A DNA stretch of 39,237 bases. It comes from a virus. Lineage: Duplodnaviria > Caudoviricetes. The position numbers and the translations under genes were made by a program. The notes beneath the pieces were generated by a model that saw nothing but the letters and a program-made list of their open reading frames with translations, was not told where the DNA came from and ran no database searches. Below, in pieces: positions 1 through 39,237 of the stretch (its first letter is position 1; every line of letters starts with the position of its first letter). Location of the stretch: positions 1-39,237 of the IMG/VR virus record IMGVR_UViG_3300032130_000005. One strand, written 5' to 3'.

Positions 1-399
1 GTCGCCTTCTTCTCTATTTTCTGAGTGGTGAATGTCAAATTTTCCTCCTGGGTATCTTGATTCAAGTTTTCTGACATTTTCTTCAATTACCTCATTAGGA
101 TCAAGCCCAAGAGAGCGACAAGCACTAGACCAATACCACATAATATCACCCAATTCTCGTTTGAGATGAAATACAGTTTCATCATTAAGTGGTTTCCCTT
201 GGAACAAACATTTTTTAACAATTTCACTAAATTCACCTCCTTCACTTGACAATCCAATAGATGCTGTTAATAACAATGGAATGTTAATACCTGTTGCATT
301 TTCTAATTCTTGTACTCGTCCAAAAAATGCACCAGACTTGTTACTTTCTACTGATGTAACTTTCTCAACGAACTCTTCGTATCGTTTTAAATCCAACAT
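1..399 (-). CDS. mazG: MazG-like nucleoside triphosphate pyrophosphohydrolase (runs off the window edge; absent from ORF track)
   Basis: Manual translation from ATG at 399: MLDLKRYEEFVEKVTS...GLSSEGGEFSEIVKKCLFQGKP...KRELGDIMWY...ENVRKLESRYPGG. The ExxE...ExxD pattern is that of phage MazG. Confidence 0.9.
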   Translation of the reverse strand, partial: MLDLKRYEEFVEKVTSVESNKSGAFFGRVQELENATGINIPLLLTASIGLSSEGGEFSEIVKKCLFQGKPLNDETVFHLKRELGDIMWYWSSACRSLGLDPNEVIEENVRKLESRYPGGKFDIHHSENREEGD

Positions 400-414
400 A
401 AGCAAAGTACCTTT

Positions 415-822
415 TTAAATAATACTCTCTTGATCCATAACGCCAACGTATCCAGTATCTGGTTGTTCTGGTTGCCAACCTATAATACCATTAACATCGA
501 TTGTTCTTAAGACAACAACATCCTCTTCATCTGGAAGTTGCATATTGAATCCTCTAGTCCAACGTCCATGCTCTACTAAAATCCAATCACCAACATTATA
601 GTCGTCATTGTTTTCGTGTCCTTTAGCATAAATTTGTCCCCAACGAGGCTTAACTCCATGACTTTTACCATCATCTGACATAATAATAAGTCCGCCTTTG
701 GTCTTCATTTCACTAAAGTCCATATCGCGAACAATCACTCTATCATGCAATGGTCTAATGTGACCTTTATAGACTGTAACAGTCTTGGAAGGTCCTCCCA
801 TGCCACTTGGATTAAGTTCCAT
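415..822 (-). CDS. groES: Co-chaperonin GroES (Cpn10)
   Basis: IRPLHDRVIV...KTKGGLII mobile loop...VGDWILV GroES signature; N- and C-terminal extensions. Confidence 0.88.
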   Translation of the reverse strand: MELNPSGMGGPSKTVTVYKGHIRPLHDRVIVRDMDFSEMKTKGGLIIMSDDGKSHGVKPRWGQIYAKGHENNDDYNVGDWILVEHGRWTRGFNMQLPDEEDVVVLRTIDVNGIIGWQPEQPDTGYVGVMDQESII

Positions 823-824
823 TG

Positions 825-1250
825 TTAGTCACCTTTTTTTACAAAGTTACCATCGTCATCTTCAACCCAGTCTTCACCGCTTCGATCGTAGGGTTGATCT
901 TCAGTTTTAACTTTAACTGGTTCTGCTTCTTTAACTTTTGTTGTTTTAGAAACTTTAGCTTTAGTAGTTGCCTTTTTAGGTACTACTGTTGCTTCTTTTT
1001 CAACAACGTTAACTCCACGTCCAGGAACTTCATCTGGAACTGCATCTGGATGGTCTCTGTAATAGTCGGCCATAACTTCTTCACGTTTACGAACAATTTT
1101 GCCACCTGGGCCTAATTCGTCACCGCGAGCATTAACACGAACATTACCCACTGCTGGTGTTAATTCGTTTTTTTGGCGTAACAAATCCATATCAATTGCT
1201 TTACCTTGCATTGATAAATGTTGTTTACGACCTGTTTGTTTTATTGCCAT
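825..1250 (-). CDS. Hypothetical phage protein, likely late-expressed
   Basis: 141 aa ORF with AGGAG RBS and an upstream ATAAATA; K/T/E-rich low-complexity C-terminal half. Confidence 0.7.
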   Translation of the reverse strand: MAIKQTGRKQHLSMQGKAIDMDLLRQKNELTPAVGNVRVNARGDELGPGGKIVRKREEVMADYYRDHPDAVPDEVPGRGVNVVEKEATVVPKKATTKAKVSKTTKVKEAEPVKVKTEDQPYDRSGEDWVEDDDGNFVKKGD

Positions 1251-1271
1251 AGTAATCTCCTATTATGTACG

Positions 1272-1278
1272 TATTTAT
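1272..1278 (-). promoter_or_regulatory. T4-type late promoter core (ATAAATA)
   Basis: GATAAATA on the - strand, overlapping the stop of the DnaE fragment, upstream of 1250. Confidence 0.55.
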
Positions 1279-1802
1279 CTCATGAACTCATGCCAGTCTA
1301 GCTCATACTGGATTGAGTTAATTTTATGAATACCAATTAAGTATAGGATATAACTTGCTACACTAGATCCTCGTCCTACTCCCCATACTACGTTATTTTC
1401 TCGCATAATAGCTACCAAATATATAAGAAACCTTAGTAAGTCAAGTAGTCCACGTTTTTCGTACTCAATATATTCTTCATCAACTCGTTTAACTTCTTCT
1501 AGAGTTTCACATCTTTCTTCTAAATAATGACGTATATCTAATTTTTGGTATTTGTCTGGCATAAACCATTCTGATTGTAAGGCCTGATCAAAATGTTTTA
1601 AGTCATATGGAAGTGGTTGGTATTCTTTTAATGGTAAAAGTTCATTACCAATTTTATTAATAGATTCGTTATATAGTTCCGTGTCACGGCTTGACTCAAC
1701 TAAAATTTTAGAGAGCTTATCACCATTACCTTCATAAATTAGATTTATGATATCTTTAGTGGTGAACCGAGGTACACCTAGTTTATCTACTAGCATATTC
1801 AT
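1275..1802 (-). CDS. DNA polymerase III alpha (DnaE, family C) stand-alone fragment
   Basis: RVDEE..EY..RGLLDLLRFLIYLV..MRENNVVWGVGRGSSVASYILYLIGIHKINSIQYELDWHEF matches DnaE ...GPGRGSAAGSLVAY.LGIT..DP....LLFERF. The ORF ends before the PDxDxD motif. Confidence 0.85.
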   Translation of the reverse strand: MNMLVDKLGVPRFTTKDIINLIYEGNGDKLSKILVESSRDTELYNESINKIGNELLPLKEYQPLPYDLKHFDQALQSEWFMPDKYQKLDIRHYLEERCETLEEVKRVDEEYIEYEKRGLLDLLRFLIYLVAIMRENNVVWGVGRGSSVASYILYLIGIHKINSIQYELDWHEFMR

Positions 1803-1812
1803 TAAGTATATA

Positions 1813-2037
1813 TTAACTGATATCTATCAGTTTGTCAAGACCTTTATTGTCATTTTCTAGTCTTGCTTTAATTTGGCGATCACTTTGTTCTAGCTTGTGG
1901 CTATTAATCATAAGCTGTATTTGATTTCTTGCTTCAGGATTGCGTGTTTGGTAGTATTTCTTTGTTAATTCTGAAAGTTTTTCGTCAAGTTGCTTATCAG
2001 ACAGTTCTGGAAGATTTTGAGCAAATGGGTGTAACAT
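1813..2037 (-). CDS. Small helical/coiled-coil hypothetical protein
   Basis: 74 aa ORF in the operon, with a GGTAGG RBS. Confidence 0.65.
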   Translation of the reverse strand: MLHPFAQNLPELSDKQLDEKLSELTKKYYQTRNPEARNQIQLMINSHKLEQSDRQIKARLENDNKGLDKLIDIS

Positions 2038-2047
2038 ACCCTACCTA

Positions 2048-2614
2048 TTAAGTAAATGTACCAACGTAATGAGCGTATACTGTTGTACCACCATCAGATG
2101 TCCAAAAGTCAACAACCATTGGGTCTACTTCATCTTGAACTACAAATGGTGAAGGAAAACTTGCGTCATATTTAATAGCACCACCACCGCCTGTTGCCCA
2201 AGTAACTGTTCTAGAAGTACTGTCACCTAATGTATCTAGTAGCATTAGACGTATTTTACCAACTTTAGTTGCCTCTGGCCAATCTGTAAAAGTTAATGTA
2301 AGATTTCCCCCAATGGTGAATGTTTGGAAATTACCATTGGAAAAACTAATATTTTGAGGAGCAACAATGGTTCCACCAGCATACAGTTTTTCTGTATTAG
2401 ATGCAAAATTTCCACCAGTAATATCGTTACCTAGAAAATCATTGCCTTCATTTAGTTTTGCTGTGTTTGTTTGTAATGCTTCAATTTCACTTTTAGCCGC
2501 AGTAAAGTTGTTCTTTATAGTGCTAAAATTATTACGGAAGCCTTGACTATCATTATCCTGCCCTGCTATAGGATATGTAGCATCAATGCTTGTATTGTCA
2601 ATATTACTTGCCAT
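2048..2614 (-). CDS. Putative virion structural protein
   Basis: N-terminal YPIAGQDNDSQGFRNNF plus coiled coil, beta-rich C-terminus; late promoter and GAGG RBS upstream. Confidence 0.65.
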   Translation of the reverse strand: MASNIDNTSIDATYPIAGQDNDSQGFRNNFSTIKNNFTAAKSEIEALQTNTAKLNEGNDFLGNDITGGNFASNTEKLYAGGTIVAPQNISFSNGNFQTFTIGGNLTLTFTDWPEATKVGKIRLMLLDTLGDSTSRTVTWATGGGGAIKYDASFPSPFVVQDEVDPMVVDFWTSDGGTTVYAHYVGTFT

Positions 2615-2630
2615 TTGTGTTCCTCTCTAT

Positions 2631-2637
2631 TATTTAT
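2631..2637 (-). promoter_or_regulatory. T4-type late promoter core (ATAAATA)
   Basis: GCGATAAATAATAGAGAGGA upstream of 2614. Confidence 0.6.
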
Positions 2638-2642
2638 CGCTT

Positions 2643-6152: not shown

Positions 6153-6177
6153 ATGCTATATATCCCTTAACTTACAG

Positions 6178-6184
6178 TATTTAT
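6178..6184 (-). promoter_or_regulatory. T4-type late promoter core (ATAAATA)
   Basis: CCGATAAATACTG upstream of 6152. Confidence 0.6.
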
Positions 6185-6190
6185 CGGATA

Positions 6191-7216
6191 TTAAGTATAC
6201 TTGTCTAGATTGGATTCGAACTCATGTAGACGCTTCCATATACTGCGAAGCTCTGTAATTGTGGTCCAGTTTTCTAAAAATAATGCAAATCCACCATGAA
6301 CCTTCTGGAAAGCATTTGATACTTGTACAACTACGCCTAATAGTACAGCACCTGTAAATAAACTAGGCCCAACAATTAAGTACGGTACAATTATCATAAA
6401 TTGATCGTAAGTAATACGCCAAGTATCAAAGTACCCATAATGCATATAAAGTCTATGATAATTGAAGCGTATACCAGTGAATAAACTCCATAGTGTTTCC
6501 GGTTGTGCGTAATTGGCTTTATCATCTTCACCTAATACTAAATCTTTTCTAAATGCCGCTTCTACTTTTTGATTATTATATTCTAGTCCCGGAAGTTTCC
6601 AACCAACAAACCATGAAATAACAATACCACCTAATGATACAACTAGAGCAGTCCATACTAATGAACCTGGAATATCGCTAAAGAACGGAATTGTAACTGC
6701 ACTACTTAAAGCCCATAAGACAGGAATAAAAGCTACTAACGTCATTATAGCTCGTACAACTTGTAATCCTAAATTTTCAACAATGCGAGCAAATCTATTA
6801 CAGTCTTCTTGAATACGCTGACTAGCACCTTCTATTTCAGTTTTAACATTACGCCAACGTGGAATATAATTAAATGTTATTGCTTCTCGCCAACGTAATC
6901 CGTATAAACGAGTAAACCATCCTGTAGCAACTGCGAGTATTACATACGGAAATGCCAATACAGCAAACGAGGGTTCGCCTTGTAATCCATTGGTCCAATA
7001 TTCAAAACTAATTAATTTGTCGTAAAATAATGCTGTACCTACGTCAGCTTTATCTTTATATTCACCTGCTGTTTGTAATAAGTTATAGAAGCCACCATAC
7101 CATGTGTTTATGGCTACAGTTATTTGTACTTGTACCCATAAAGAAATAGCAAGTAAAGTGCCACCACCCCAGGCCCACAAAGCCCACTTTCGACTTTTGT
7201 AAAATGCGCCTATCAT
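6191..7216 (-). CDS. sbmA: SbmA/BacA-family inner-membrane peptide transporter
   Basis: VAINTWYGGFYNLLQ, IEGASQRIQED..RF, IMTLVAFIPVL, KLPGLEYNNQKVEAAFRKDLVLGEDD, WTTITELRSIWKRLHEFE all parallel E. coli SbmA motifs. Confidence 0.9.
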   Translation of the reverse strand: MIGAFYKSRKWALWAWGGGTLLAISLWVQVQITVAINTWYGGFYNLLQTAGEYKDKADVGTALFYDKLISFEYWTNGLQGEPSFAVLAFPYVILAVATGWFTRLYGLRWREAITFNYIPRWRNVKTEIEGASQRIQEDCNRFARIVENLGLQVVRAIMTLVAFIPVLWALSSAVTIPFFSDIPGSLVWTALVVSLGGIVISWFVGWKLPGLEYNNQKVEAAFRKDLVLGEDDKANYAQPETLWSLFTGIRFNYHRLYMHYGYFDTWRITYDQFMIIVPYLIVGPSLFTGAVLLGVVVQVSNAFQKVHGGFALFLENWTTITELRSIWKRLHEFESNLDKYT

Positions 7217-7230
7217 GTTGTGCTAAACGT

Positions 7231-8109: not shown

Positions 8110-8118
8110 ATCTTTTCC

Positions 8119-8844: not shown

Positions 8845-8851
8845 TATTTAT
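8845..8851 (-). promoter_or_regulatory. T4-type late promoter core (ATAAATA)
   Basis: AATAAATACAT overlapping the protease stop codon, upstream of 8826. Confidence 0.55.
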
Positions 8852-10464
8852 TCCAAAGTACCACTGCCGCTAGTACCAGTCCAACCCCAAGGATTAGGAC
8901 TACTATAAGGCCAATGTAATGTTTTAGCAGGTGCTCCGTAACGTCTTGGAATAGCATTATAGGCATTAAAATCTGTTGCAGTACCGGTATCATAAGCATC
9001 AGTTGTAGCATGAATATTAAGAAAATCTTTGAATTGTTGTGCAGTTCCACCTGGATTCGCTTGTAACCATAATGCACCTATTCCAGTTATTTGTGGTGAC
9101 GCCATTGATGTTCCACCTATTCGCGCCATATAATGTGTAGAACTTCCAGGGTAAAGTTGTTTTGAACCATATGTACTTACTTGACTAGTTGCACTTGAAA
9201 TCTCTTGCCCACCTGCTATTATATCAATACGTGGTCCTCTTTCACTAGATTGTGTGATGAATTCTTGTCCCCCGTATCTATCTTGATCCATATTTGCTAC
9301 CCATACAGTATCATCACTATGCGGTGAACTAGGACGATTATAATATATAGGATTACCTGCCGCGATCCCCTGCCACGATTCATTTAATGTATAATAGCTA
9401 TCATAAATGTCACTATGATAAGGAGCATTAGGACCTGAACATGGATGATATCCATTGCCTGCCGCCTTAACACAAATTACACCTGAATCTGTTAATTGCT
9501 CTTGTTCAACATTACTTGAGAGATCGAACAAGGGATGTCTACTGTTTATTGCTCCGTATTGTGTAAATGTTCCAGAGGTCCATTGTTGAGGAGTAATACT
9601 TTGATCTACTCCTTGAAAAAATATACTTTGTACGGCGGCGTTATTGTTATTATTATAGTACCAACTTTGTCCCCAACTTTGATTTACAATGGTAGGACGT
9701 TTAAATCCGTTAGCTTGAACAGGTTTATTTTCATGCCAAATTCTTATGCAATCCCAAAGGTCATTCGAATTCATTGCCGATGTTCCACCAAATACTCTTA
9801 CAGAATAAATTTTTGCATTCTTGGCCCAACCATATGTTTTACCTGCGGCAATACCTGCTACGTGACTTCCGTGTTCTCCTGCCGGCTGACCGTCATTATA
9901 AGCGTTTGAATAGTGCGTTCCTGGCATTGATCCTGAAATAATCGTATTCCAATCAAACTGTTCAAATCTTGTAGTGCCTTCAGCATCATTCCATTCTGGA
10001 TGTCCTGTAGGATCAACACCATCGTCTTGTATTACAATGTCAACACCTGTACCATCTAATGTATAAGTATAATCTCCTGTGTATGTACTAGATTGTGTTG
10101 CCGCATCGTAGTCACTACGAATATGTCTTTTTAATGCCCAATTAACTGCATCTTGACTGTTAGTAGTTGTTCTATCAAACTGACCAGTCTGTGTTTCATA
10201 TAATTCTCTTGTCTCAGGATCTGGCAGAGTTGATACTGTGTATATTCGTGGGTCTTTTGATAACTCCGCCGCTTCAGCATCAGTTAACATATAATGAGTA
10301 ATTCTGTTATTGGCTTTTTTAGCATACGCTACATCAACAGTTCTAGTTGGAACGTGAGCACTAACAGCCGCATCACTAGTAGTATTTCTTTCTAAGTCAA
10401 CTTCTACTTGTGCAATATCAATGCCTTTTTTAGTAACGACTCTATATTCTTTTTCACCAGCCAT
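8848..10464 (-). CDS. S8 (subtilisin-like) serine protease
   Basis: Catalytic triad IVIQDDG / HGSHVAG / GTSMASP, oxyanion AAGN, N-terminal prodomain-like region. Confidence 0.92.
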   Translation of the reverse strand: MAGEKEYRVVTKKGIDIAQVEVDLERNTTSDAAVSAHVPTRTVDVAYAKKANNRITHYMLTDAEAAELSKDPRIYTVSTLPDPETRELYETQTGQFDRTTTNSQDAVNWALKRHIRSDYDAATQSSTYTGDYTYTLDGTGVDIVIQDDGVDPTGHPEWNDAEGTTRFEQFDWNTIISGSMPGTHYSNAYNDGQPAGEHGSHVAGIAAGKTYGWAKNAKIYSVRVFGGTSAMNSNDLWDCIRIWHENKPVQANGFKRPTIVNQSWGQSWYYNNNNNAAVQSIFFQGVDQSITPQQWTSGTFTQYGAINSRHPLFDLSSNVEQEQLTDSGVICVKAAGNGYHPCSGPNAPYHSDIYDSYYTLNESWQGIAAGNPIYYNRPSSPHSDDTVWVANMDQDRYGGQEFITQSSERGPRIDIIAGGQEISSATSQVSTYGSKQLYPGSSTHYMARIGGTSMASPQITGIGALWLQANPGGTAQQFKDFLNIHATTDAYDTGTATDFNAYNAIPRRYGAPAKTLHWPYSSPNPWGWTGTSGSGTLE

Positions 10465-11978
10465 TAACTTATCCCCGCAGTAGATGTTAAGGCTCTATTA
10501 GCCGCAAATGGAAAATAAGCTATTCTGTTTGGACCATTCTGTAAACTTTGATCATCTGAAAAGAAAGTAGTTGGAGTATTTTCATCTGTTGAACCTTGAA
10601 ACAGTAAACCAGTAACTGCATTGTCTTGCCACCATTTACGTAATTGTGCAGGTGTCCATCCAGGATTTAATTGTAATATTAAACAACTCATGCCAGATAT
10701 CTGCGGTGTAGCCATTGATGTTCCTGTGTTGTTATAACTATCTGTGTCATCGGCAGAACCAGCACTCATAATATTTGTTCCAGCCGCCCATAGGTCAACT
10801 CTAGGTCCTTTATCACTAGTATTTTCTGTTGCTTCAACTGTACCGTTTAAGGCACTATCTAAATTACCTACAACAATTGTTTCAGGTCCGATGTTACCTG
10901 CACCTCTATTATAATGGACAGGATTTCCTGCTGTTATCCCACCTGAAGCTACACTTCGTGTAATATAGTTGTCGTAATCAATGTCTCCGTCATAGCAAAG
11001 TTTTTGACGTTGATTTCCTGCACTTTTAATATAATGTACACCTTCGTCTTGCATTTCTTCAACTTCAACATTTAAGCTCTGTAAATTTGCATTAAATTTA
11101 CCATTGGAGTCCCCAACAGTTCCATACTGGTCTGCCTTAACTGAACCAACACTAGATCCTCTAAACTGAATATCTGTTACACTAGTAAAATATGCTTTAA
11201 ATCCCCAACTTGCTCCTACGACCGTTGGTCGTTTAAAACCAGTAACTGGATCTAAAGTTTTAGCTTTATGAAATTCTTTAATTGCATCAAACCAATATGC
11301 TTGACTAATAATGTTTATAGGTAAACAATATATTCTGGCATTTTTAGCCCAGCCATAATCTTTACCTACAGCCGTTCCACAACAATGAGTTGCATGACTA
11401 CTAGGACTAGATGCGGTATAATCTATAGCAGGAATAGAACCCATATTAGGAAGTGTATTCCATTGGAATTCTTCTAAACGACTAACGCCGTTTTTATCTT
11501 GCCATTGTTCGTGTGTAAATCTAAAGTAATCTTCTTGATGTATATAATCAACGCCGGTACCATCTAAATGATAATCATACGTTGTTCCAGCAGTAAGATC
11601 TTGAGTAACATTAAGTCCCCATAAGTTTGTGTTATTAACTTGTCTTAAAAATCCCCAGTTACCTCTTGCTGTTGAAGTAGAATCTCTAACCCAGTTTTCG
11701 TCTTGTTCGTAGTCTACCCAATCGGATGACCATTCAAGTGGAAGTTCAACACCTCTTACTCTAGAATCATTTGTAAGTTTTTTTGCTTCATCATCTGTAA
11801 GGGATATTTCAAAAATACGTTTACTAGTTGGCCTAGTGTTTACATTTTCAACTGTTCTATCAGGAATGATATTGCTGTCAACACTAGCATCAGCACTTGT
11901 ATCTCGATTAAGGTCGTTAATTATTTGGTCTTTATTAAAGCCCTTGTGTAAAGAAACAACATAATGTTTTTCACTCAT
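10464..11978 (-). CDS. S8 (subtilisin-like) serine protease paralogue with Glu at the triad Asp position
   Basis: HATHCCG, SAGN, GTSMATP; GTGVDYIHQED aligns to GTGVDIVIQDD of the neighbouring protease. Confidence 0.88.
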   Translation of the reverse strand: MSEKHYVVSLHKGFNKDQIINDLNRDTSADASVDSNIIPDRTVENVNTRPTSKRIFEISLTDDEAKKLTNDSRVRGVELPLEWSSDWVDYEQDENWVRDSTSTARGNWGFLRQVNNTNLWGLNVTQDLTAGTTYDYHLDGTGVDYIHQEDYFRFTHEQWQDKNGVSRLEEFQWNTLPNMGSIPAIDYTASSPSSHATHCCGTAVGKDYGWAKNARIYCLPINIISQAYWFDAIKEFHKAKTLDPVTGFKRPTVVGASWGFKAYFTSVTDIQFRGSSVGSVKADQYGTVGDSNGKFNANLQSLNVEVEEMQDEGVHYIKSAGNQRQKLCYDGDIDYDNYITRSVASGGITAGNPVHYNRGAGNIGPETIVVGNLDSALNGTVEATENTSDKGPRVDLWAAGTNIMSAGSADDTDSYNNTGTSMATPQISGMSCLILQLNPGWTPAQLRKWWQDNAVTGLLFQGSTDENTPTTFFSDDQSLQNGPNRIAYFPFAANRALTSTAGIS

Positions 11979-11981: not shown

Positions 11982-14540
11982 TTATGCCATACCTAATAAT
12001 CTGAAAGTCCCGGAACTAAAAGTACCGTTAAAACAATGCAATTTTAGATCAGTGAAAGTCGCGACCGCACACATTCCTGACCACAGAACTGTACAAGGAC
12101 CATCATCGGTTGAAATTCCTTGTCCAGTCATCACCACTGCGTTTCCGTTTACTCTAAAATCTATATAGCCGCTCCATCTTAATGGAGATGCCCAAACGGC
12201 ATGAGGAGTTAAAACAACGTATTCTCCGTTCCCGCCTGTCAGAGTCGAGTTCCCGTCTGCAACAAATGTTCCTGAATTGTCAAATGAATTAATACCGTTT
12301 TGAGCCCAAGTATCTATACTTGAAAACCCGTCATTGCTTATTGATAACTCAGTTCTGGTATTGGCGCTCCTGACAACATCTTCCATTTCTAGTCGCACAA
12401 CACTATACGCGGCAAGATTTAGAGTTGACCATGTTAACGTCTGGGTGGTAGGAGTATCAGATTCAATTTCTGTCCAACCACCACCGCCACCGCCACTAGC
12501 ATTAATTGTAATATTGCCTTCTGTATCACTAGCCGTTGTAACATTAGTTCCGCCAATAAATTTAATACTTTCGTCGGTTGAAATAGTTCTTAATGTTGAA
12601 TCATCAGCACCTACACTAAATGAAAAATTGTTATTTGTTGGTGCCCAAATACTTCCATTCCAAAATACTAGTTGTTGGTCTGAATTATTATAAATTACAT
12701 CGCCTGGCTGTCCAACTAATCCTGCAATACCAGTAGTATCAAAAGATCCTAAACGTAATGGTGCCGCCTGTACAACAACGGCGTTTGCCGCGTCAAGAAT
12801 TAAATTACTTGCTGAAGTTATAGTTGGTATACCTGCACCTGAACTTACAACTGAGTCAGCTGTAACTGTAGTAGCAACTATATTAATACCAGTTAGTGTG
12901 TCAGTAGTTTTATTATATACTAAACCACCATCGCCTCCAAATGAGCTTGAATCGTTAAATTGTACTTGTGTATCAGAACCACCTGGTGTTCCACCACCAC
13001 CGCCTGTACTATTAATTGTAATTTCATCAGCCGCAGTTGTCATTGTTATGTTTGTACCCGCAACCAATGTCAATTCATCTGCCGCCGCACTTGCTACAAC
13101 ATCTGTTTGTCCTGAGATTTTAATTGTTTTGTATGAGTCTTCGTTTAATTCACCTGTACCCGATGGTGTTGACCAACTTAATGTTTCATTACCATCAGTA
13201 GTTAATACTTGATTTGTAGTACCATCGCCGTCTGGTAAAGTAAATGATTTACTAGCTGTTACAGTTCCTGCTGACTTAAATCCAATAAAGTGTGAATTGT
13301 CAGTATCATAATATCTAATTTCTTTAGTAGATGCTACTTTAAGATCACCTGCAAATGTAATTTCGTTTACACCATTTGCAACTGAACCTGATACATTTAA
13401 GTTAGTAGTATTAACTGTAGTTCCTGTAAATGAAGTTGCACTTAATACGTTTGTACTAGGATTATATGTTACTGAAGCGTCTGTTCTTAACTCTTGGCTT
13501 GAAGAGTCAGATACAGCAACAAAAGTTACAAACTGTGCCGCCGCTGTAGCATCTGGTGATGTAGTAACAGTTGCCGCATCAACGTTGTTTAATACTCGTG
13601 GCTCCCATTTTGATGTTGCACCTTTAAAACTTAAAACATAATCGTCAACTGGTGTTGTACTAACTGTATCAACATCAGCTAAATCATCAATATTTGATGG
13701 TGCCGCAATTGAACCCGGTCCCCAAGTACTAGCACCTGAATCATATGTTAATACTTGTCCGTTTGTTGCTCCAGCAACTCCAACATCTACAAGGTCACCT
13801 ATGTTGCCAATTGTAGTCGTTATGTTGCCTTCGGAATCACTAGCTGTTGTAATACCAGTACCACCAATAAATTTAATTGATTCAGTTGTTGAAATTGCTC
13901 TTAAAGTTGAGTCGTCAGCACCGACACTAAATGTAAATGAACTTGCATCTGCTTTCCATTTAAATGATGTAGTAGCATGATCATAATATAAAATATCGCC
14001 GTCGTTTGTACCAGTTACTGCATCAACATCGGTTAAAGCAGTAAACGTTGTTATGCCGCCAGCATCTACCTTCCACTTCCAAGAAGTAGAAGCATGATCA
14101 TAATATAAAATTTTTCCATCGTCACTTACTGTAACATCATCTACATCTTTTAATGCAGTTATAGTTTTTAGGCTTAGATCTAAATTTGAACCTGTTTGTG
14201 CATTAACTCTTGCATCAGTTTTAGCAAGTGTAAAATATTCATTGGTTACACCTTCACTAATAACATCTGTAGTAATTCCTGCCGCCAAGTAACCAACGTC
14301 ATTAGCGAAGGCACTTAAAGCTGATGGTACAGTTGGAATACTAGGCTTGTTTGTTAAATCATTATAGTCACCACTAAATGGATTATTAAATGAAACATTA
14401 TTAATTCTAATATCTGTCGCATTAATAGTTCCAGCATTAGTTACACCAGCTCCACCTAAATCAAGGTTATCTCCTACTGGTAATTCCTTAATTTTATTGC
14501 TGTCTAGTACATCAACTACTAGTGGTATTCTATTTGCCAT
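11982..14540 (-). CDS. Modular tail fibre / receptor-binding protein (852 aa)
   Basis: Repeated fibre modules (FSGDYNDLTNKP, ADDSTLR x2, ILYYDH..S.KWK x2, GSDTQVQFND), poly-Gly linker and C-terminal tip domain. Confidence 0.75.
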   Translation of the reverse strand: MANRIPLVVDVLDSNKIKELPVGDNLDLGGAGVTNAGTINATDIRINNVSFNNPFSGDYNDLTNKPSIPTVPSALSAFANDVGYLAAGITTDVISEGVTNEYFTLAKTDARVNAQTGSNLDLSLKTITALKDVDDVTVSDDGKILYYDHASTSWKWKVDAGGITTFTALTDVDAVTGTNDGDILYYDHATTSFKWKADASSFTFSVGADDSTLRAISTTESIKFIGGTGITTASDSEGNITTTIGNIGDLVDVGVAGATNGQVLTYDSGASTWGPGSIAAPSNIDDLADVDTVSTTPVDDYVLSFKGATSKWEPRVLNNVDAATVTTSPDATAAAQFVTFVAVSDSSSQELRTDASVTYNPSTNVLSATSFTGTTVNTTNLNVSGSVANGVNEITFAGDLKVASTKEIRYYDTDNSHFIGFKSAGTVTASKSFTLPDGDGTTNQVLTTDGNETLSWSTPSGTGELNEDSYKTIKISGQTDVVASAAADELTLVAGTNITMTTAADEITINSTGGGGGTPGGSDTQVQFNDSSSFGGDGGLVYNKTTDTLTGINIVATTVTADSVVSSGAGIPTITSASNLILDAANAVVVQAAPLRLGSFDTTGIAGLVGQPGDVIYNNSDQQLVFWNGSIWAPTNNNFSFSVGADDSTLRTISTDESIKFIGGTNVTTASDTEGNITINASGGGGGGWTEIESDTPTTQTLTWSTLNLAAYSVVRLEMEDVVRSANTRTELSISNDGFSSIDTWAQNGINSFDNSGTFVADGNSTLTGGNGEYVVLTPHAVWASPLRWSGYIDFRVNGNAVVMTGQGISTDDGPCTVLWSGMCAVATFTDLKLHCFNGTFSSGTFRLLGMA

Positions 14541-17309: not shown

Positions 17310-20300
17310 TATACTCTTCCTACCACAACGAAGATTTCACCATCATCTGGAGTCGTTTTAGCTTCAAGTGATTTACCTATTACTGTACCAACTTTTGGAT
17401 TACTAGTTGCACAAGCAAAACCTTTATGTGAACTTGTTACAAGCATTTGGCCTTTTCTAACCATGCCTCTAACTTTAACTTTAATTCTACCTTGTAAGGC
17501 AATTGCTGTTACATTATTACCTTCTTGTTCTGAATTCATTAAGTATGCAGGATGTTCTGAAACAACACCAGCAACTCTATCATCTTCGTGTAAGTTTGTT
17601 ACAGTTATTTCATCATCACCGCCAAATATTACAACTGTGCCCGGTTCGTATACTGCATCTGCTGTATAATTTTCTGCCAAGTCAGCATATTGTGCCTGGG
17701 TAGAAGTACCATTAAATGTTGTTGCATAGATAGTATTATATTTGAGACTTGCTGAACCTATAATGTATGTGTCATCAAGTCCAGGTTCAAATCCTGTTGA
17801 TGTTGTTTTAAGTACAGTTGCACCGTCGGATATAAGACCAATTTGTCCTGCGGCAGTATATCCTGTATTTGCACCTATACTAATACCTGTACTATTTGCA
17901 TCAAGTTCCCCTGGTGCTTCAATAAATGAACTGTGTATCCAGTCAACACCTAATCTTGATTCTCCTGCTAGTGCCGAATTAGTTTGGAAGCTACCTTCTG
18001 TTGTACCAGTTGCTCCGATATCAAGACTTCCAGTCATGCTAACAGTTGGAGTAACTGTTCCAACTGCACTCATAAATGAAGCGGCACCTGGTGTATATAA
18101 ATTAACAGTAGTACCAGTAGTATCTATAATTAGGTATGTATCAACTTTAATTCCTTGTGAAGCTACGTTACCTAGTGCATCAGTTTTAACAATTTTGTTT
18201 GCTTCTCCAGTAGTAGTTGTTTCTCCTATTACTCCACCACCACCTAAAACAATATCTGAGTAAGAAACTTCTTTAATAGCACCAGCTGGTGCTGTTCCTG
18301 GCGTTGCACCATATGGTTCGTAAGTAGCATCATGATAACCTAATGCTACCTTGTCAGCAAGATTAATTATTTTATTAAAATTAAGACCAGCAGTGGTTAG
18401 TTCTACCCAACCGTCAGTTGCTGTAAAGCTATCACTATCAAAACTAGCAACACCTAAATCTGATTGTGTAATTCCTGTAGCATCTACTCGTGTAGTTGCC
18501 GCATTTAAGTTTAATTTACTTTGAGATATATCCGCCGCTGAGTTTACATCTGCATTTACAATCCTATCAGGTGCGTGTCTAAGTTCTAATGTTGCTCCAC
18601 TTCCAGTTCTAGCAACATGAAGTGTAACATCTGTAGCCGCGTCCTCTGTAGCCAATGCATATTCATCATATGGGCCTTGTTTATTTTGAGCTGTAACTCC
18701 ACCACCAGTATCAATAAGATCAGCTGTACTAAAGTTAATGCCTGATGTTAATGTGTATGTTAATAAATTATGTGCTACGCTATTAATTGAAACGTTTTCA
18801 ACATCAAGTACTGTACCAGTTGCACCAGTACCATTACCAGTAATAGTATCATTAATTTGGAAGTTACCACCACTAGCTGGCGCTGTATAAATTCTATATT
18901 TTCCTGTTGTTACAAGTAATTGTGCCGCGGCAATTGTATTAGTTTCGACATCAAGTAATTCTGGAATTGTATCACCAGCCGCAATTAAGCTGTCAACATA
19001 ACTCTTAGTCGCCGCATCTTGTTGATCGGCTGGATCTCTTAAGTTAGTAACTGTATATGTTCCACCTGCATTTTGGTCGCCAGTAAATGCTAATACGCCA
19101 TTTCTAGCTAATACACCTAAACCAATTGGAGTACTTACAGCCGCACCAGCATGATTAAATCCTAATCGTCTGTTTACATAACCTCTAACTGCTGATTCAG
19201 TTGGTACCGAATCACTAGCATTGTCAGTCATGCCGTCGTCTGCACTAAATTCACTAGCTACAACGCCACGTTTAAATCCTAAGCCATCTAAGTTACTTAA
19301 AGCAATACTTGCCGAGAATGTAACTGTTCCTGTACCTTGATCAACTGTAAAGAATCTACCTACTCTAAAGAAACCGTCTTGATCTGTACTTACATAGAAT
19401 ACTCTACCTTTATCACGTTCGACAACTTCTTTTTCTTGGTCTGCTAGTTGTAATGGAGCACCTAATGTTACGTTCGGGAAGTTTGTAGTATTAAAGCTAC
19501 CGGTACCAATGTCTAAGAAATCGTGTCCTGTTGCTCTACAAGTTGAAATATTAATAGTAATATCTCCACCTTCATCCTTTTGTAGTCCACATCTAAGTGT
19601 AACAAGTGTTGTAGTATTTCTTACTGTACTAACAAGTCCAACTGCTGATGCTGGAACGTTAATGTCTGAAGCCGGAAGATCTTCAATAACAATTGTAGCA
19701 AATGTAGTTCTATTAGTATAACTTTTAATAACATGAGTTTTACCATCCCAAGCAAAAATCATATCACCTGCATTTAATCTGTCAACATCTGCTTGTGCAG
19801 AAACAAGTTCAATAGCAATAACAGTATCACCTATTGTGTCACCCATTGTTGTACCGCTACCAGCAAATGTGTTATTTTGTGATTCGCCATTATCAACAAG
19901 TACTTTAATATATCTGTATGTACTATCAAAAGTAACCATTCTATCAGAGGCCCCTAATGCACCACCGATAGCATCTGTTAGACCGTAAGCAATAGTTCTA
20001 TATGTTACATCAACAGCTTCGTCAAATGTAATTGCTGTACTTGGTCTAGTAATAGTTGTGTCAACTCCACTAACATGAAAGTTTAAGTTATTTCTAATAA
20101 TAACTTTCTGGTCATGTGTTAGTGTGTCAAGCAATCCTGATTTTGTTGTATTATCTTGTCCTGTTGTAGCAACGTTTAATTGGTAAACAGCTTCATCTCT
20201 AACTGAATTTCTAAATGTAAATCCTGTAATGTTAGTTGAAGCACTTGTAGTATATGTATGTTTGTGTACTGTACCGCCACTAACCCAAGTGTGTACTAGT

Positions 20301-28979: not shown

Positions 28980-29423
28980 TTAATTTTCCACTATTGCACT
29001 ATTACTACCATGCTCAAACACTTCAACACTAGCAAGTCTTACACGACCTCCTGTGTCTTCATCTATAATTGGTGCTACATAATTATAAACGTGTTCTGCA
29101 AATTTTTCACAACCTACGCCATCCATTTGAATAACTTTAGCAAGACCTTTTTCTTCTAATGCTATAAAGTCGTTTAGATTAGGATCATTTTTATCAACAG
29201 CTAGTTTATGATCAAAATTATCTTCTAGATATTGTTTAATCCATTTACAATTGCCAAAATCATAAACCCAATTTTTATCATCTAGTTCGAATGCTTCAAA
29301 CTCAAATCGAAATCCTAAACTGTATCCATGAATTAATGAACAATGACTGTCTGCCAATGCTTGTCTAAACGCACAACTGAATCCTCTTTCGTTACCGTAT
29401 GTTTTTGTACTTTTATGTTTCAT
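28980..29423 (-). CDS. queD: 6-carboxy-tetrahydropterin synthase (QueD/PTPS family); start reassigned to ATG 29423
   Basis: SCAFRQ...HCSLIHGY...LDDKNWVYDFG...FDH...GCEKFAE...VEVFEHGSNSA; AAGGAG RBS. Confidence 0.85.
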   Translation of the reverse strand: MKHKSTKTYGNERGFSCAFRQALADSHCSLIHGYSLGFRFEFEAFELDDKNWVYDFGNCKWIKQYLEDNFDHKLAVDKNDPNLNDFIALEEKGLAKVIQMDGVGCEKFAEHVYNYVAPIIDEDTGGRVRLASVEVFEHGSNSAIVEN

Positions 29424-29481
29424 ATTTTCTCCTTTTAAACGGCGGAGTATTTTAAGAGGGTCGACGTAATAGTCCTCATTT
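29424..29481 (-). ncRNA. Candidate preQ1-I-like riboswitch / structured 5' leader of queD
   Basis: GAGG-ACUAUUACGUCGAC-CCUC-UUAAAAUAC-UCCGCCGUUUAA-AAGGAG: stem P1, A-rich tail and possible loop-tail pseudoknot, lying between the promoter and the SD. Confidence 0.5.
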
Positions 29482-29486
29482 GTAAT

Positions 29487-29515
29487 AGTATATAACAATT
29501 TTGTTTAGTTGTCAA
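29487..29515 (-). promoter_or_regulatory. Sigma70-type promoter for queD
   Basis: TTGACA(29515-29510)-17 bp-TATACT(29492-29487). Confidence 0.8.
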
Positions 29516-31375: not shown

Positions 31376-31380
31376 GACAA

Positions 31381-31393: not shown

Positions 31394-31418
31394 TGTATAA
31401 CGATAGGAACAAAACCGA

Positions 31419-34250: not shown

Positions 34251-34260
34251 GGAAAAAGAT

Positions 34261-34928: not shown

Positions 34929-34929
34929 A

Positions 34930-35271: not shown

Positions 35272-35275
35272 AGTG

Positions 35276-36397
35276 TTACCCCTCTATAACACCAAACGGT
35301 TTCCATTCTCCTGGTGTACCATTTTTAATACAGACCCATCCAACATGACTTGTTGGTTTTGGTTCTTGATTCCATACGATATCACCTTTGACGTAGATTC
35401 CATTATTTGGTGGTTGAACCCCAATTTCGAATTTCTTATTTTCAAATCTGACAGGCCCTGAGGTGCTAAAACATACGTCAGGATTATTAACTCCTACTCC
35501 TAATTTTCCTTTAACTGTTGTGATAGAATCAGCATCAGTACCAATTATAATTCTATTATTGGCAGTGAGTTTAATTCTAGTTTGATTGTCAGTAATTAGA
35601 TTCATGTCACTTGTAGTATAAGTTCCTACATTGGCAGAATCATATTCTGGGTCAACAATGAATTCAACTTCATTGCTACTAACACTTAATTGTCCGTTGC
35701 CTAACTCTGTGCCTATTCCAAATCTCATTTCATCTCCGTTATAAAAGATGAATTGATCTATTGTAAGACTGCCTTCAGTTTTAAGATTACGTAATGTGCC
35801 TACTTCAGTTAAACTAGATTTTGTTATATCAGGGCCTAATTCATTTGCACTTAATACTGTAACATTTCCGATTTTATATTCATGACCAGTATGTAGATCA
35901 AAGTCTTCACTAGACCAAATACGATCGTCTCCACCCTTCATTACTAATTGCTTGGTATGATCATATCCTGTCCATAATAGTCCTTTATTGTAAGGAGTAT
36001 CGTCTACTGAACATTCAAATACTAAAGGTGTTGTTCTTGCATTTCTAACATCGGCTTGTATTTCGTCAACTTCTATTTTAGAAGCCTTAATTGTGCCGCC
36101 TACAGTAAGGTCGTTTTCTACAGTAGTATCGCCGACTAATTTAGCAACTATTAAATTATCAGTATAAACACCTTCGTCTTTTATAACAAAGGTTTGTTTA
36201 GTTGCTTCGTCACGGATACCTGTACTTGCAAAGTGTGTGATTTTACCAGCACTTATTTTATTACCACTAAGGCTTCTATCAAGAATCTCTTGTGCTGGCA
36301 ATTCCCTATTTGCAATAGTTTCAAGTGCCTCACCTAGTTGTACAAGACCGTCTTTTACTGCTAAAATTTCAGAATCTTTAATGTCACGTGTGCTCAT
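35276..36397 (-). CDS. Putative virion structural/fibre-type protein
   Basis: SSLTEVGTLRNL, GKLGVGVNNP, C-terminal KGDIVWN..P.....GWVC...GTPGEWKPFG; ATAAATA upstream. Confidence 0.65.
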   Translation of the reverse strand: MSTRDIKDSEILAVKDGLVQLGEALETIANRELPAQEILDRSLSGNKISAGKITHFASTGIRDEATKQTFVIKDEGVYTDNLIVAKLVGDTTVENDLTVGGTIKASKIEVDEIQADVRNARTTPLVFECSVDDTPYNKGLLWTGYDHTKQLVMKGGDDRIWSSEDFDLHTGHEYKIGNVTVLSANELGPDITKSSLTEVGTLRNLKTEGSLTIDQFIFYNGDEMRFGIGTELGNGQLSVSSNEVEFIVDPEYDSANVGTYTTSDMNLITDNQTRIKLTANNRIIIGTDADSITTVKGKLGVGVNNPDVCFSTSGPVRFENKKFEIGVQPPNNGIYVKGDIVWNQEPKPTSHVGWVCIKNGTPGEWKPFGVIEG

Positions 36398-36402
36398 ACT
36401 AG

Positions 36403-36409
36403 TATTTAT
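36403..36409 (-). promoter_or_regulatory. T4-type late promoter core (ATAAATA), 5 nt before the ATG
   Basis: GATAAATA-CTAGT-ATG. Confidence 0.6.
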
Positions 36410-37710
36410 CTTACAGCCTTAAGAATAATAGTATCAGTATTGATCCTACCGTTTAGTTTAATGTCTACAGCATTGATATTATCTAGATATGTACGCAGTT
36501 TAATCTTTCCACAATCTTTAAATTCTTTAAGTTTTTCTTCTGGCTTTCTAAGCGTCTTTTGAATAGATGTATCTGTAGCAAAACCTGTAATAGTTGTACC
36601 CTTAACACTTAATCCAGTTCCTTCACGTTCTAAATGCATTGGATCAATGCTACTAGCGATATACCTTCCCATTTTGCGTGTTTTAACATTAAACACCCAT
36701 AGTTCTTCACATCCTATAATATCGATAGGATTAATACTAGCTAGTTGAAATTTATCATCCTGACGTTTATACCTTAATTTAGAAATCAGCTTTTCTTTGC
36801 TACGTGGTGCTCGTTTGCGTGTTTTACGATTAGCTTTAGCAGTATCAATAACTACGCCCAATGCACCCATAAAATTGTTAAATCCATCTAATTTAAGTTG
36901 TAGCCCTTTTTTATCATAGCATGAATAAGCCTCTTTAAGTTGTTCAGCCCAGTCCTGCTCTTTCTCGGTCATTGTTGCTAGTTGCTTTTTAGATAAAGGA
37001 TTTAGCAATTCGTTTAGCTCTGCTATTTCGTCTTTATAAAATTCTATCATTCTTCTAGCATGAGCTTGGGTTGTTTTAACGTCAAGAAAATGGTTGCGGA
37101 AGTTAAAACCTTTAGGATTAAATTTATGTGGATTATCAACCCAGCTTTCTAGCCATGTATCAATTGCGTCTAATTGTAAATATGTTTGCTGTTGAATACG
37201 TTCTTGAATAGTAGGCTTAGGACCCCCTACTAGTTTTACTTTTGTTTCGTCTTCTTTTTTCTTTTCTTCTATCACTTTTTCCCCGTCAGTGAACAATGCA
37301 TTTAATTGTTTATGTATCCAATCTGTTGATGGCTTATTTTCCCCCATCAATCCCGGCATACTATCTATATATGCCTGTCCGCCTGGATGAATGTCCGGCA
37401 TACCTCTATTTAACATTCTGCATAAAGAACCAGTAGTGCCGTTGAAACGCCAGTCTGGATTTTTACTTATAACTTTAGCCTTGTCAGCCCACTCCTTTTT
37501 TGACTTGCAATACTCTAAGATCCAAGTTTTGTAATGTGAACTTTTATAGTCGTAACGATAAAAATCCATGGCGGCAGTTTTTGCTTGATGAAATTTTTCA
37601 GCAGAAAGGCTTAGACCGTTTGAAAGATCTGGTTCGTTCCCTTTAGTTCTTGTACGGGATACTCTTTTTTTCTTACGTGGAGTTCCTCTAAGATTAAGTC
37701 GTCGAGCCAC
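36406..37710 (-). CDS. Hypothetical protein of large myoviruses (basic, 434 aa)
   Basis: GTG start with AGGAG RBS; C-terminal LWVFNVKTRK...VKGTTI...QKTLRKP...NGRIN block. Confidence 0.75.
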   Translation of the reverse strand: MARRLNLRGTPRKKKRVSRTRTKGNEPDLSNGLSLSAEKFHQAKTAAMDFYRYDYKSSHYKTWILEYCKSKKEWADKAKVISKNPDWRFNGTTGSLCRMLNRGMPDIHPGGQAYIDSMPGLMGENKPSTDWIHKQLNALFTDGEKVIEEKKKEDETKVKLVGGPKPTIQERIQQQTYLQLDAIDTWLESWVDNPHKFNPKGFNFRNHFLDVKTTQAHARRMIEFYKDEIAELNELLNPLSKKQLATMTEKEQDWAEQLKEAYSCYDKKGLQLKLDGFNNFMGALGVVIDTAKANRKTRKRAPRSKEKLISKLRYKRQDDKFQLASINPIDIIGCEELWVFNVKTRKMGRYIASSIDPMHLEREGTGLSVKGTTITGFATDTSIQKTLRKPEEKLKEFKDCGKIKLRTYLDNINAVDIKLNGRINTDTIILKAVR

Positions 37711-37746
37711 CCATTATCTCCTTTGAAAATAGTTTCATCACTAGCT

Positions 37747-37780
37747 ATTATATAGCAAGGAAAATAAAAAGCAAGGAAAA
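37747..37780 (-). promoter_or_regulatory. Sigma70-like promoter with an 11-bp direct repeat
   Basis: TTGCTT-16 bp-TATAAT; AGCAAGGAAAA at 37754-37764 and 37770-37780. Confidence 0.45.
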
Positions 37781-37792
37781 GTGAGTTTTTTC

Positions 37793-39124
37793 TTAGAGTT
37801 TTTCGCCCAATTCAAATCCTCTAAAGCATTTGAATCTTGGAAATCGTAAACTATAAGTGTTTGAATCTTGTGATTTAGTACGGGCATCTGCTCTAATTTC
37901 AATTAAAACATTAATGAGCTTATCACGGCTAGCCCAGAAGCTATCACGTTCAGCGTCAGTGAAACCGCTTCCACAGTTAAGGTGATAATTGTGTCCATCG
38001 TCTTCTCCTTCTACAATGACAGCACCTAAACGTCCTTCATTACGCCCGGTACCTTCTTCAACTGCAATTACTTTTAAGGTTACTTCGATAAATGGTTTTA
38101 GCTTTAACCAATACGCAGAACGTTTACATTCATACGGTGCATCTAGATCTTTAATCATGATACCCTCGTATCCACCGTCTACAGCCGCTTTGTTTACGTT
38201 TGTGTACGTTTTTTGTCCTGCCTGGGTCTCTAGGTCTACTATCTCATGATCCAGCACTTGTACGTGCTCTAAGGCGTCTTTATGTGTTTCGTACCAATGC
38301 TTTAACATTAGTGTTCGTTGTTCTTGTGGTTTATCCCAACCACCTTCCAAGAAATCTTTTAATGGAATAAAATCGAAAAGATGTAAAATGGCGTCTTTAG
38401 CCGTAACATTACTTTTACGATGAACTTGTTTCATTAAGTCTTGGAAGTTATCGCTCATTACTTCTCCATCCAAAACTAAATCATATGGTGGAGGAGATTT
38501 TTTAACGACAGTTTGAATTTCGTCAATAATATGTTGAAAGTTTATAAACTGTTTTCCATTTCTGCTAAATTGTTCTATCTTACCATCTTTACGAACGATT
38601 GTTAAAACTCTTACACCGTCTAATTTAACTTCTAGCATTTTTCTACCAGTAAGTTTCTTTTCGTGTTTTGCAGAGTCTTGTGCTAGTTGGCAAGTAAATC
38701 TTGGAACTTCGTATTTGTCAAATCCATTTTTCTTAGCAACATTGTTTACAGTTTTTTCACTTACACCACAACGTAAATCTTTAATTAGGATTCTACGATA
38801 AAATCCATTCCATTGTTCTGCGGTTGCTGAACTCATTACAAGTTCAATGGCATCACGTGCCGCATGACCTGTAAGTTCTCGCTTATTAAGTTTTTCTGCT
38901 AAATTCTTAAAGACTTTCCAATCACAGCCTTGAGCTGACATTACTGTATCTTTTGTAGGGACTTTTTTGACGCCGAATGTGTATAGAGGATCTAAACACA
39001 TTTTTACTCCATCGAAGAACTCATCTAGTCCTTCGTTCATTGCGTCTAATAGGATTGCTTCTTTAGATAGACGTGAATTGTCTGCCTCTAGTTTTTCAAT
39101 TACTGCCTGTGGTTGGGTTCTCAT
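37793..39124 (-). CDS. lig: ATP-dependent DNA ligase
   Basis: Motif I EVKLDGVR, LDGE, LFD, EGIMIK, WLKLK, CGSGFTD, LRFPRF. Confidence 0.95.
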   Translation of the reverse strand: MRTQPQAVIEKLEADNSRLSKEAILLDAMNEGLDEFFDGVKMCLDPLYTFGVKKVPTKDTVMSAQGCDWKVFKNLAEKLNKRELTGHAARDAIELVMSSATAEQWNGFYRRILIKDLRCGVSEKTVNNVAKKNGFDKYEVPRFTCQLAQDSAKHEKKLTGRKMLEVKLDGVRVLTIVRKDGKIEQFSRNGKQFINFQHIIDEIQTVVKKSPPPYDLVLDGEVMSDNFQDLMKQVHRKSNVTAKDAILHLFDFIPLKDFLEGGWDKPQEQRTLMLKHWYETHKDALEHVQVLDHEIVDLETQAGQKTYTNVNKAAVDGGYEGIMIKDLDAPYECKRSAYWLKLKPFIEVTLKVIAVEEGTGRNEGRLGAVIVEGEDDGHNYHLNCGSGFTDAERDSFWASRDKLINVLIEIRADARTKSQDSNTYSLRFPRFKCFRGFELGEKL

Positions 39125-39155
39125 TTTGTGCCTCTTTTATTAATTTTATACTTAT

Positions 39156-39184
39156 AGTATAACATCCTAGCACCAATTTGTCAA
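39156..39184 (-). promoter_or_regulatory. Sigma70-type early promoter for the ligase
   Basis: TTGACA-17 bp-TATACT with an extended TGn. Confidence 0.8.
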
Positions 39185-39237
39185 CCTCTTTTTATTCTTT
39201 TTTTGGACAGGCTTCTTCAGTAGCTTTTAAACCATAT

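Follow-up and report, generated by a model that had tools for sequence, protein, structure and literature searches.

The DNA analysed here is a 39,237-nt stretch of a caudoviricete virus (IMG/VR record IMGVR_UViG_3300032130_000005, positions 1 to 39,237), hereafter called the window; it is a 39-kb fragment that stands alone as a record (G000). The window lacks the word GCWGC (W, A or T) and retains other restriction words only where they hold or adjoin a G followed by a purine (a GR step). The probable explanation is that a GR-specific, DpdA-type 7-deazaguanine mark shields such sites, and that restriction by the host has removed the rest.

An earlier reading of the same DNA from its letters alone (the sequence-only reading) had reported no GCAGC or GCTGC, and exact counting confirmed this: both words stand at zero and are the sole two of the 1,024 five-mers absent from the window. 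The Markov expectation for GCWGC is 40.5, and a synonymous-codon shuffle (35 open reading frames (ORFs), 38,820 nt, 300 shuffles) gave 52.0 ± 3.3 sites with a minimum of 42, which makes the earlier estimate of about 24 too low. The comparison of exact k-mer counts with a codon-shuffled null, set beforehand as the check, therefore places the observed zero far from expectation. GCSGC (S, G or C) occurs 65 times (48 GCCGC and 17 GCGGC), in keeping with the more than 60 sites reported, against 14.7 under the same shuffle. GATC, GANTC, GGCC and CCGG occur 131, 89, 31 and 29 times, again as the scan had indicated.

The gap is reflected in the codon usage of Ala-Ala pairs. All 59 of 59 pairs open with GCG (43) or GCC (16), while the remaining Ala codons are mostly GCA (450) and GCT (299), with 66 GCC and 33 GCG (99 of 848), a contrast already noticed by eye. 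The pairs are recoded because GCW-GCN is almost the sole origin of GCWGC in these genes, 49 of the 52 null sites falling in the Ala-Ala frame. Since the number of Ala-Ala pairs lies near the null (59 vs 64–69 expected), the protein was retained and the DNA word altered. The gap is the result of selection on the DNA word, and neither decay nor protein constraint. As in avoidance of Type II sites, palindromic words of 4–6 bases fall below both the codon and the Markov nulls, through synonymous loss with the protein kept. An assembly artefact was ruled out, because three independent records (L011, L001 and L305) match the window at 99.4–99.9% and the gap recurs in many others. The features concerned are as follows.

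1..39237, no strand: window-wide absence of GCWGC (0 vs 52, codon shuffle), with 59 of 59 Ala-Ala pairs written as GCS-GCN
13081..13088, plus strand: tandem GCCGC from recoded minus-strand Ala-Ala, an example verified by sequence check
18924..18931, plus strand: second example, verified by sequence check

The sequence-only reading had placed the first example correctly and the second at 18904. In the coding regions of the window, GGAGG/CCTCC (14 vs 53) and A runs are also low under the codon null; these are likely translational signals, unrelated to restriction.

The gap extends to the relatives. In six long records plus the window (7 records, 766,138 nt), GCWGC occurs 0 times vs 749.5 expected, and it is likewise at zero in 345,008 nt from four further records, so that the relatives total ten marine jumbo-phage records and 1.07 Mb. 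In a redundant set of 247 phage loci, each 10 kb or longer, 168 are without GCWGC and none is without GCSGC. AGCT is wholly absent from four of the seven pooled records and CTAG from two; in distant relatives GCWGC is partially lost or normal. Nothing resembling GCWGC depletion or flank-dependent gaps was seen in marine bacterial loci. The GCWGC gap is thus a clade trait, one among many gaps. Farther relatives (L121, L138, L144, L159, L325, L333 and L359) lose other words (GCGC 0/24; TGCA 11/93 and 1/21; CTAG 0/44; AGCT 0/44; ACGT 1/50; CATG 0/44), none of which contains a GA or GG step.

Flank-dependent purging and the GA/GG rule

The sequence-only reading had proposed strong selection against one motif. 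The selection stands; the single motif does not, as further words are missing from the window.

1..39237, no strand: context-dependent purge (500 codon shuffles) of RCATGY (0 vs 19.1), HGCGCD (0 vs 15.9), RCASTGY (0 vs 11.5), RCTWAGY (0 vs 10.0) and unshielded GCNNGC (0 vs 9.1)

One rule covers the purged words, which comprise GCGC, CGCG, CATG, CASTG, CTWAG, GCNNGC and several 6-mers: sites are kept where a G-purine step occurs inside them or directly 5' of them. In the same shuffles, window cores with a G-purine step in or beside them survive (CATG 85 vs 92.8, CTWAG 39 vs 32.4, CASTG 21 vs 30.5, GCGC 8 vs 14.4), and control words are present under the codon null (RCTAGY 51 vs 38, HAGCTD 80 vs 101, RCAWTGY 19 vs 17). 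Flank matrices over the seven pooled records gave the same picture at larger numbers. Every GCGC survivor (247/247) reads GGCGC or GCGCC, with a 5' G on one strand, and a 5' G on one strand also accompanies GTGCAC (32/32) and AAGCTT (15/15). CGCG (190/190) and CTTAAG (101/101) never take the form R-core-Y, their terminal G being followed by A or G; nor do CATG (1,042/1,042) and CASTG (257/257) in the five records that purge them. The base after A-CATG, A-CAATTG and A-CTTAAG is always A or G.

We then compared 55 dinucleotide rules over 243 cells whose cores were chosen without reference to any rule. GA+GG ranked first, with a Matthews correlation coefficient (MCC) of 0.91 against 0.55 for the runner-up. 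Among the 100 empty cells, 89 were unshielded and 11 shielded; among the filled cells, 143 were shielded and none unshielded. Unshielded cells held 0 sites vs 1,605 expected and shielded cells 2,025 vs 2,969. The window taken by itself follows the rule throughout, with all 7 unshielded cells empty and all 19 shielded cells filled. The rule held out of sample in the four records fetched after it had been fixed (345 kb), where unshielded CATG, GCGC, CGCG and CASTG numbered 0, 0, 1 and 0 against 726, 102, 108 and 161 expected. In the bacterial control, none of the 76 unshielded and none of the 122 shielded classes had an observed/expected ratio (O/E) below 0.1.

The triplets that rescue CATG include all four GGN and all four GAN. 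Since every base is allowed after the G-purine step, the motif appears to be GA and GG in general, broader than the GA and GGC of the DpdA of phage CAjan. GR steps account for 46% of the Gs in the window. The step may also act from the center of a site: in the closest long relative, G001, RCTWAGY is absent (0 vs 110 expected) and RCTSAGY, with its central GA, is present (37 vs 47 expected). In the clade genomes, GCNNGC cores are mostly kept where their inner step is GA or GG (O/E 0.6–1.4).

GCWGC can never hold a GR step, and every GCSGC has a central GG on one strand. Given the precedent for central shielding in RCTSAGY and in GCNNGC with inner GA or GG, an enzyme that cuts GCNGC explains the gap as well as one that cuts GCWGC. 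We lean slightly toward GCWGC as the unshielded half of GCNGC, left behind by a GCNGC cutter that is blocked at GCGGC; a true GCWGC cutter has a little under an even chance. The earlier label of TseI/ApeKI site is accordingly uncertain, because such a blocked GCNGC cutter would give an identical gap. The BisI family (5-methylcytosine-dependent Type IIM enzymes) differs in requiring a modified cytosine in GCNGC; no cytosine methyltransferase was found here, and these enzymes would leave the GA/GG rule unexplained. Another lead on GCWGC, PMC11094077, was dropped, the word occurring there in a primer only.

Candidate insertase and comparison with modified phages

The window itself encodes one enzyme of the 7-deazaguanine pathway.

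28980..29498, minus strand: QueD-like 6-carboxytetrahydropterin synthase, the sole 7-deazaguanine-pathway gene in the window (phrog_2389, E 2.5e-38; PF01242; TIGR03367, E 1e-9, below cut-off)

Relatives with the putative modification module share 80–84% DNA identity with the window. The closest long one, G001 (199,810 nt, about 56% complete), does so over the shared region. It carries T4-like genes for capsid, portal and family B polymerase, which indicate a T4-like jumbo phage with a genome of about 350 kb. FolE, QueE and QueD are encoded in G001, G002 and G004, and G001–G004 encode a conserved 513-amino-acid protein of TGT fold (P0001) together with a GT4-like glycosyltransferase (P0002). 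The P0001 gene lies near a DNA polymerase gene. A YhhQ-family transporter was found in one record. A QueC-like PHROG match in G001 (E 2.8e-4) was not confirmed by further searches and was set aside.

P0001 was identified by fold alone, as it had no match in Pfam, PHROGs, NCBIfam, PADLOC or a PDB sequence search. Its predicted model has a pLDDT (predicted local distance difference test score) of 91.5, and a Foldseek search of the PDB returned TGTs only among the matches listed. A wide structure search (VIA) placed arcTGT first (Z 17.3, root-mean-square deviation (rmsd) 4.8, 297 aligned), before QTRT2 (16.9) and bacterial TGT (15.8); DpdA (7ui4; Z 14.7, rmsd 4.2, 292 aligned) and Cap10 (14.2) ranked fourth and fifth, and the next score was 11.5. 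All 95 homologs share residues D101, S102, G104, D146, G196, H260 and D293 without exception, and the motifs at D101, D146, G196, H260 and D293 presumably correspond to the TGT catalytic motifs. P0001 is without the CxCxxC zinc motif, a feature of tRNA TGTs. The tally of homologs came to 7,845 of 7,999 scored candidates. A profile built from the 95 sequences matches PA5oct and Phosso and, at E ≤ 0.001, finds nothing in CAjan, Iggy or nt-1; as it misses the DpdA of these three phages, P0001 represents a divergent subfamily.

If the missing words record a modification motif, phages with measured motifs should carry a comparable footprint. We took the O/E of depleted C....G 6-mers by their 3' neighbor (A / G only / neither). 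The values were 0.41/0.12/0.15 for Iggy and 0.51/0.32/0.16 for CAjan (both siphoviruses, with small counts), 0.47/0.76/0.22 for Paride, 0.56/0.74/0.19 for Phosso (280 of 469 kb) and 0.60/0.39/0.07 for the jumbo clade, compared with 0.59/0.67/0.48 for G010 and 0.66/0.48/0.49 for low-GC marine bacteria. The footprint reproduces the measured contrast between GA-only and broader enzymes, the DpdA motif being GA only in Iggy (PMC10484667) and GA and GGC in CAjan (PMC7544227).

Like the clade, the CAjan/Iggy DpdA1 systems combine FolE, QueD, QueE and a TGT-fold insertase with a G-before-purine motif and protection of part of the restriction sites. The clade differs in that P0001 is unmatched by profile, no QueC was found, a GT4-like gene stands alongside, and the motif, all GA and GG, is read from missing words. 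Phage nt-1 is also a large T4-like phage, and its 464-amino-acid protein (presumed DpdA2) is among the closest named viral structures to P0001 (E 2e-9), although there is no match at the sequence level and the clade footprint implies near-complete GR modification. A further parallel is Wroclawvirus PA5oct/Paride, which share the DpdA-like gene (35%), an adjacent GT4-like gene, QueE and QueD, again with no QueC found, as well as a GR-conditional purge at CTGCAG, CAGCTG and GTGCAC. In Paride, the gene for the P0001 homolog immediately precedes the GT4 gene, with the polymerase and QueE close by. Both differ in their Pseudomonas host and in that GCWGC is unpurged. For PA5oct, modified G in GA and/or GG has been proposed from digests; the part of that paper available to us names QueE and QueD and not the insertase, which is annotated as hypothetical (PMC12191111). 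The available part of PMC10761892 makes no mention of DNA modification in Paride.

Weighing the explanations

In the mechanism that we propose, FolE, QueD and QueE would make 7-carboxy-7-deazaguanine, with host preQ0 as an alternative since QueC was not found, and DpdA would insert a 7-deazaguanine derivative at GR (GA and GG). The mark may be bulky, such that a modified G just outside a site would block some enzymes. The host population, likely marine Alphaproteobacteria, would hold a patchy set of Type II enzymes, leading different phages to lose different words, and selection would then clear just those sites that lie beyond the protection of the mark. A more far-reaching version, which we put forward tentatively and regard as rather unlikely in its entirety, is that an abundant clade of marine jumbo phages shares with PA5oct/Paride an as yet undescribed DpdA subfamily, which replaces nearly every pre-purine G (about 46% of Gs) by 7-carboxy-7-deazaguanine, and that the neighboring GT4 protein glycosylates the product to a new bulky base able to shield sites from just beyond their edges; GCWGC would be the unshielded half, and flank-resolved counts would give a general readout of motif and host repertoire. 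The sequence-only reading had offered a host restriction system, a phage nuclease or a site that the phage's own modification cannot protect. The first and third combined fit best; a phage nuclease for GCWGC gained no support from the protein scans described below.

Several observations weigh against shielding combined with host restriction. We infer the modification here from missing words and gene content, and counts read the same whether the mark sits on the G of GR or on the C of the opposing YC. The insertase gene lies outside the 39-kb window and was read from G001–G004. G010–G013 carry a P0001 homolog, but GCWGC stands at normal frequency in three of their four loci read, and the gene is thus no predictor of the gap. 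QueC, needed for preQ0, was found in none of five records, one of them complete (PA5oct) and one 92% complete, although the control was positive in 13 of 14 genomes; QueC is required for dPreQ0 and not for the DpdA family as a whole. As for the rule itself, 11 of the 100 empty cells count as shielded, and AGCT and CTAG are absent even where shielded, so that the sensitivity of each enzyme has to be assumed. An earlier ranking with NN-degenerate families put AC/GT+AT first (MCC 0.50); these families mixed in non-target words. A flanking G gives no rescue of GCWGC in the core clade (0 vs 247 expected), so that this gap, like those of AGCT and CTAG, would call for an enzyme indifferent to the mark. 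Partial rescue is seen farther out, where 20 loci that have lost part of their GCWGC retain 92 sites, 66 of them G-flanked, vs 605 of 2,042 in normal loci. PA5oct has just two ApaLI sites, both GGTGCACC, so that its ApaLI digest carries little information; the sites fit flank shielding, but as evidence this is thin. We could link no host enzyme to the phage, and the Bsp6I family, whose specificity we take to be GCNGC, occurred in 1 of 401 sampled Alphaproteobacteria. From the literature, marine metagenome-assembled genomes are poor in restriction–modification (R-M) systems (PMC8919816), the nt-1 DpdA2 modifies about 0.1% of G (PMC6884629), and the resistant sites of phage 9g, in the portion of the report available, reveal no flank pattern (PMC5567051). 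A related vibriophage, a Schizotequatrovirus, does reach 15% (10.1101/2024.12.24.630238).

The same shielding logic could operate with cutters that come from the phage itself, degrading host DNA, or from competing phages. This we consider improbable. The absolute zeros over 1.1 Mb are what constant self-exposure would yield, marine bacterial loci lack GCWGC depletion, and the clade has a GIY-YIG nuclease, a Cas4-like PD-(D/E)XK nuclease, an SNase and a weak HNH-like ORF; such a role has been speculated for the Cas4-like nuclease of 9g (PMC5567051). More than ten specificities are purged, however, in a mix that differs by record, and these shifting mixes are more readily explained by a patchy host repertoire than by enzymes of the phage. 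Unrelated cultured DpdA phages also exhibit a like footprint at classic six-base sites. Four records whose gene content overlaps around the genome (G001, G008, G023 and G019) served as a composite. No restriction-enzyme family turned up in 426 protein scans of the window and this composite, for which 150, 135 and 106 selected proteins were run against Pfam, nor among 30 proteins scanned with PADLOC, very long and short (<60–100 amino acids) ORFs being left out. The phage-nuclease option of the sequence-only reading thus finds no support here, although many ORFs are unannotated and without a family. No methyltransferase or restriction enzyme was recognized among the window's proteins, and the composite yielded one Eco57I-like methyltransferase, in a single record. 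A Bsp6I-family search of five phage records gave 0 matches and was uninformative, the positive control being silent too. Separately, a conserved 253-amino-acid ORF (G019 L618:576-1334; 72–87% across three records) has a weak HNH-type PADLOC match (E 0.004) and is a possible phage nuclease.

Since GR and YC are complementary, the mark might instead be the work of a cytosine methyltransferase, from phage or host, that acts on the C of YC, with the DpdA-like gene otherwise employed, for example in tRNA modification. The clade does carry tRNA and tmRNA genes, and N4-methylcytosine methyltransferases are frequent in marine myoviruses (PMC8919816). We nevertheless regard this explanation as quite improbable: seven records contained no C5 methyltransferase and five no N4/N6 enzyme, apart from the one Eco57I-like gene, P0001 is without CxCxxC and encoded near the DNA polymerase, and the Iggy footprint tracks a measured G motif.

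Plain avoidance with no modification, in which host enzymes natively recognize GCWGC, RCATGY and the other flanked words, is highly improbable. To our knowledge, no prototype enzymes exist for most of these flanked words, and separate enzymes would be required for HGCGCD, RCGCGY, RCASTGY, RCTWAGY, HAAGCTTD, HGTGCACD, RCTTAAGY and RCAATTGY, and it would take coincidence for all of them to follow a single GA/GG rule. In its favor, some of the specificities are real, namely GCWGC (TseI) and RCATGY (NspI, PMC5567051), and site avoidance is common in virulent double-stranded DNA phages (Rusinov et al. 2018, PMC6286503). The likeness to that avoidance is that a lytic phage drops palindromic Type II sites by synonymous change; here, in contrast, the loss is absolute, affects many words and is conditional on a G-purine neighbor, whereas the available part of PMC6286503 treats sites without flanks. 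Mutational decay by GCWGC methylation and C-to-T deamination, without nuclease selection, is scarcely credible and was rejected, since deamination would have turned Ala-Ala into Val/Thr rather than keeping the pairs and moving the wobble base to rare codons, and decay does not give absolute zeros, even though some marine bacteria do show depletion of methylated motifs (PMC8919816).

Host, gene content and significance

Two further genes of the window served as a host clue and as a marker for finding relatives.

6191..7216, minus strand: SbmA/BacA transporter gene, host clue; best bacterial matches in marine Rhodospirillales (88%), in a bacterial context
37793..39124, minus strand: ATP-dependent DNA ligase, marker for finding relatives, from family matches

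Permuted (two-piece) tmRNA genes with divergent tag peptides were found in G008 (L361:13453-13878) and G003 (L368:18782-19178); permuted tmRNA is typical of Alphaproteobacteria. Together with the SbmA gene, these sequence clues suggest that the host is likely a marine alphaproteobacterium. Within the SbmA-donor family, 13 of 39 genomes encode C5 methyltransferases, with specificities that are not readable from sequence. Of 80 bacterial SbmA loci, taken as a host fingerprint, 74 reach 6 kb or more, and none of these is depleted in GCWGC. GCWGC methylation has been recorded in a single Chloroflexi genome (PMC8919816). A small alphaproteobacterial genome (G162 L633:192-2040) encodes a C5 methyltransferase and a Bsp6I-family endonuclease beside a gyrB-like gene; the order-level sample around the Bsp6I-bearing genome comprised 4 genomes only. 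As pointers to a host cutter, the C5 methyltransferases and the Bsp6I-family system are weak.

The window also encodes tail fibers, baseplate parts, S8 proteases, GroES, MazG, SbmA, IscA, QueD, 2OG-Fe(II) oxygenases and the ATP-dependent ligase. Two tandem S8 subtilase genes lie within the tail-fiber block (8848-11978), and a 175-amino-acid protein (1275-1802) matches part of DNA polymerase III alpha, while the relatives use a family B polymerase. Metabolic genes were observed in the relatives. G001 has a dense cluster of radical SAM/SPASM, sugar dehydrogenase and aminotransferase genes (L094-L096, about 71–97 kb). In G008, a ferredoxin-dependent bilin reductase and a heme oxygenase surround a tryptophan-halogenase-like gene, followed by ClpS, DnaK and Hsp20 (L360:17340-18032 and L361:632-1174), and G023 encodes a phage ribosomal protein L7/L12 near coproporphyrinogen oxidase (L632:6189-6551). 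G019 (L618:12458-L619:4387) and G020 (L625) carry a class II tRNA synthetase-like gene, saccharopine and proline dehydrogenases, an aldehyde dehydrogenase and a thiamine pyrophosphate enzyme, with a pyruvate:ferredoxin oxidoreductase subunit in the metabolic block of G020.

Site avoidance and DpdA modification are each already known; the new part is the flank-conditional purge that exposes a motif. We found no paper that describes flank-conditional purging as a readout of a deazaguanine motif or that names the PA5oct insertase, although reviews or supplements may hold part of this. The analysis gives the motif GA+GG for uncultured viruses, cross-checked on Iggy and CAjan with their measured motifs, and names a likely insertase for PA5oct/Paride. 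If shielding by a GR-specific mark combined with host restriction is correct, missing words would be readable as a map of unseen DNA modification in uncultured phages. Apparent avoidance specificities such as GCWGC, RCATGY and CTWAG may equal broader enzymes seen through a modification mask. Marine alphaproteobacterial populations would press strongly on their phages with more than ten Type II specificities, though single marine genomes rarely show R-M systems. Avoidance and base modification, usually seen as alternatives, appear to be complementary base by base, with the boundary between them written in the genome.

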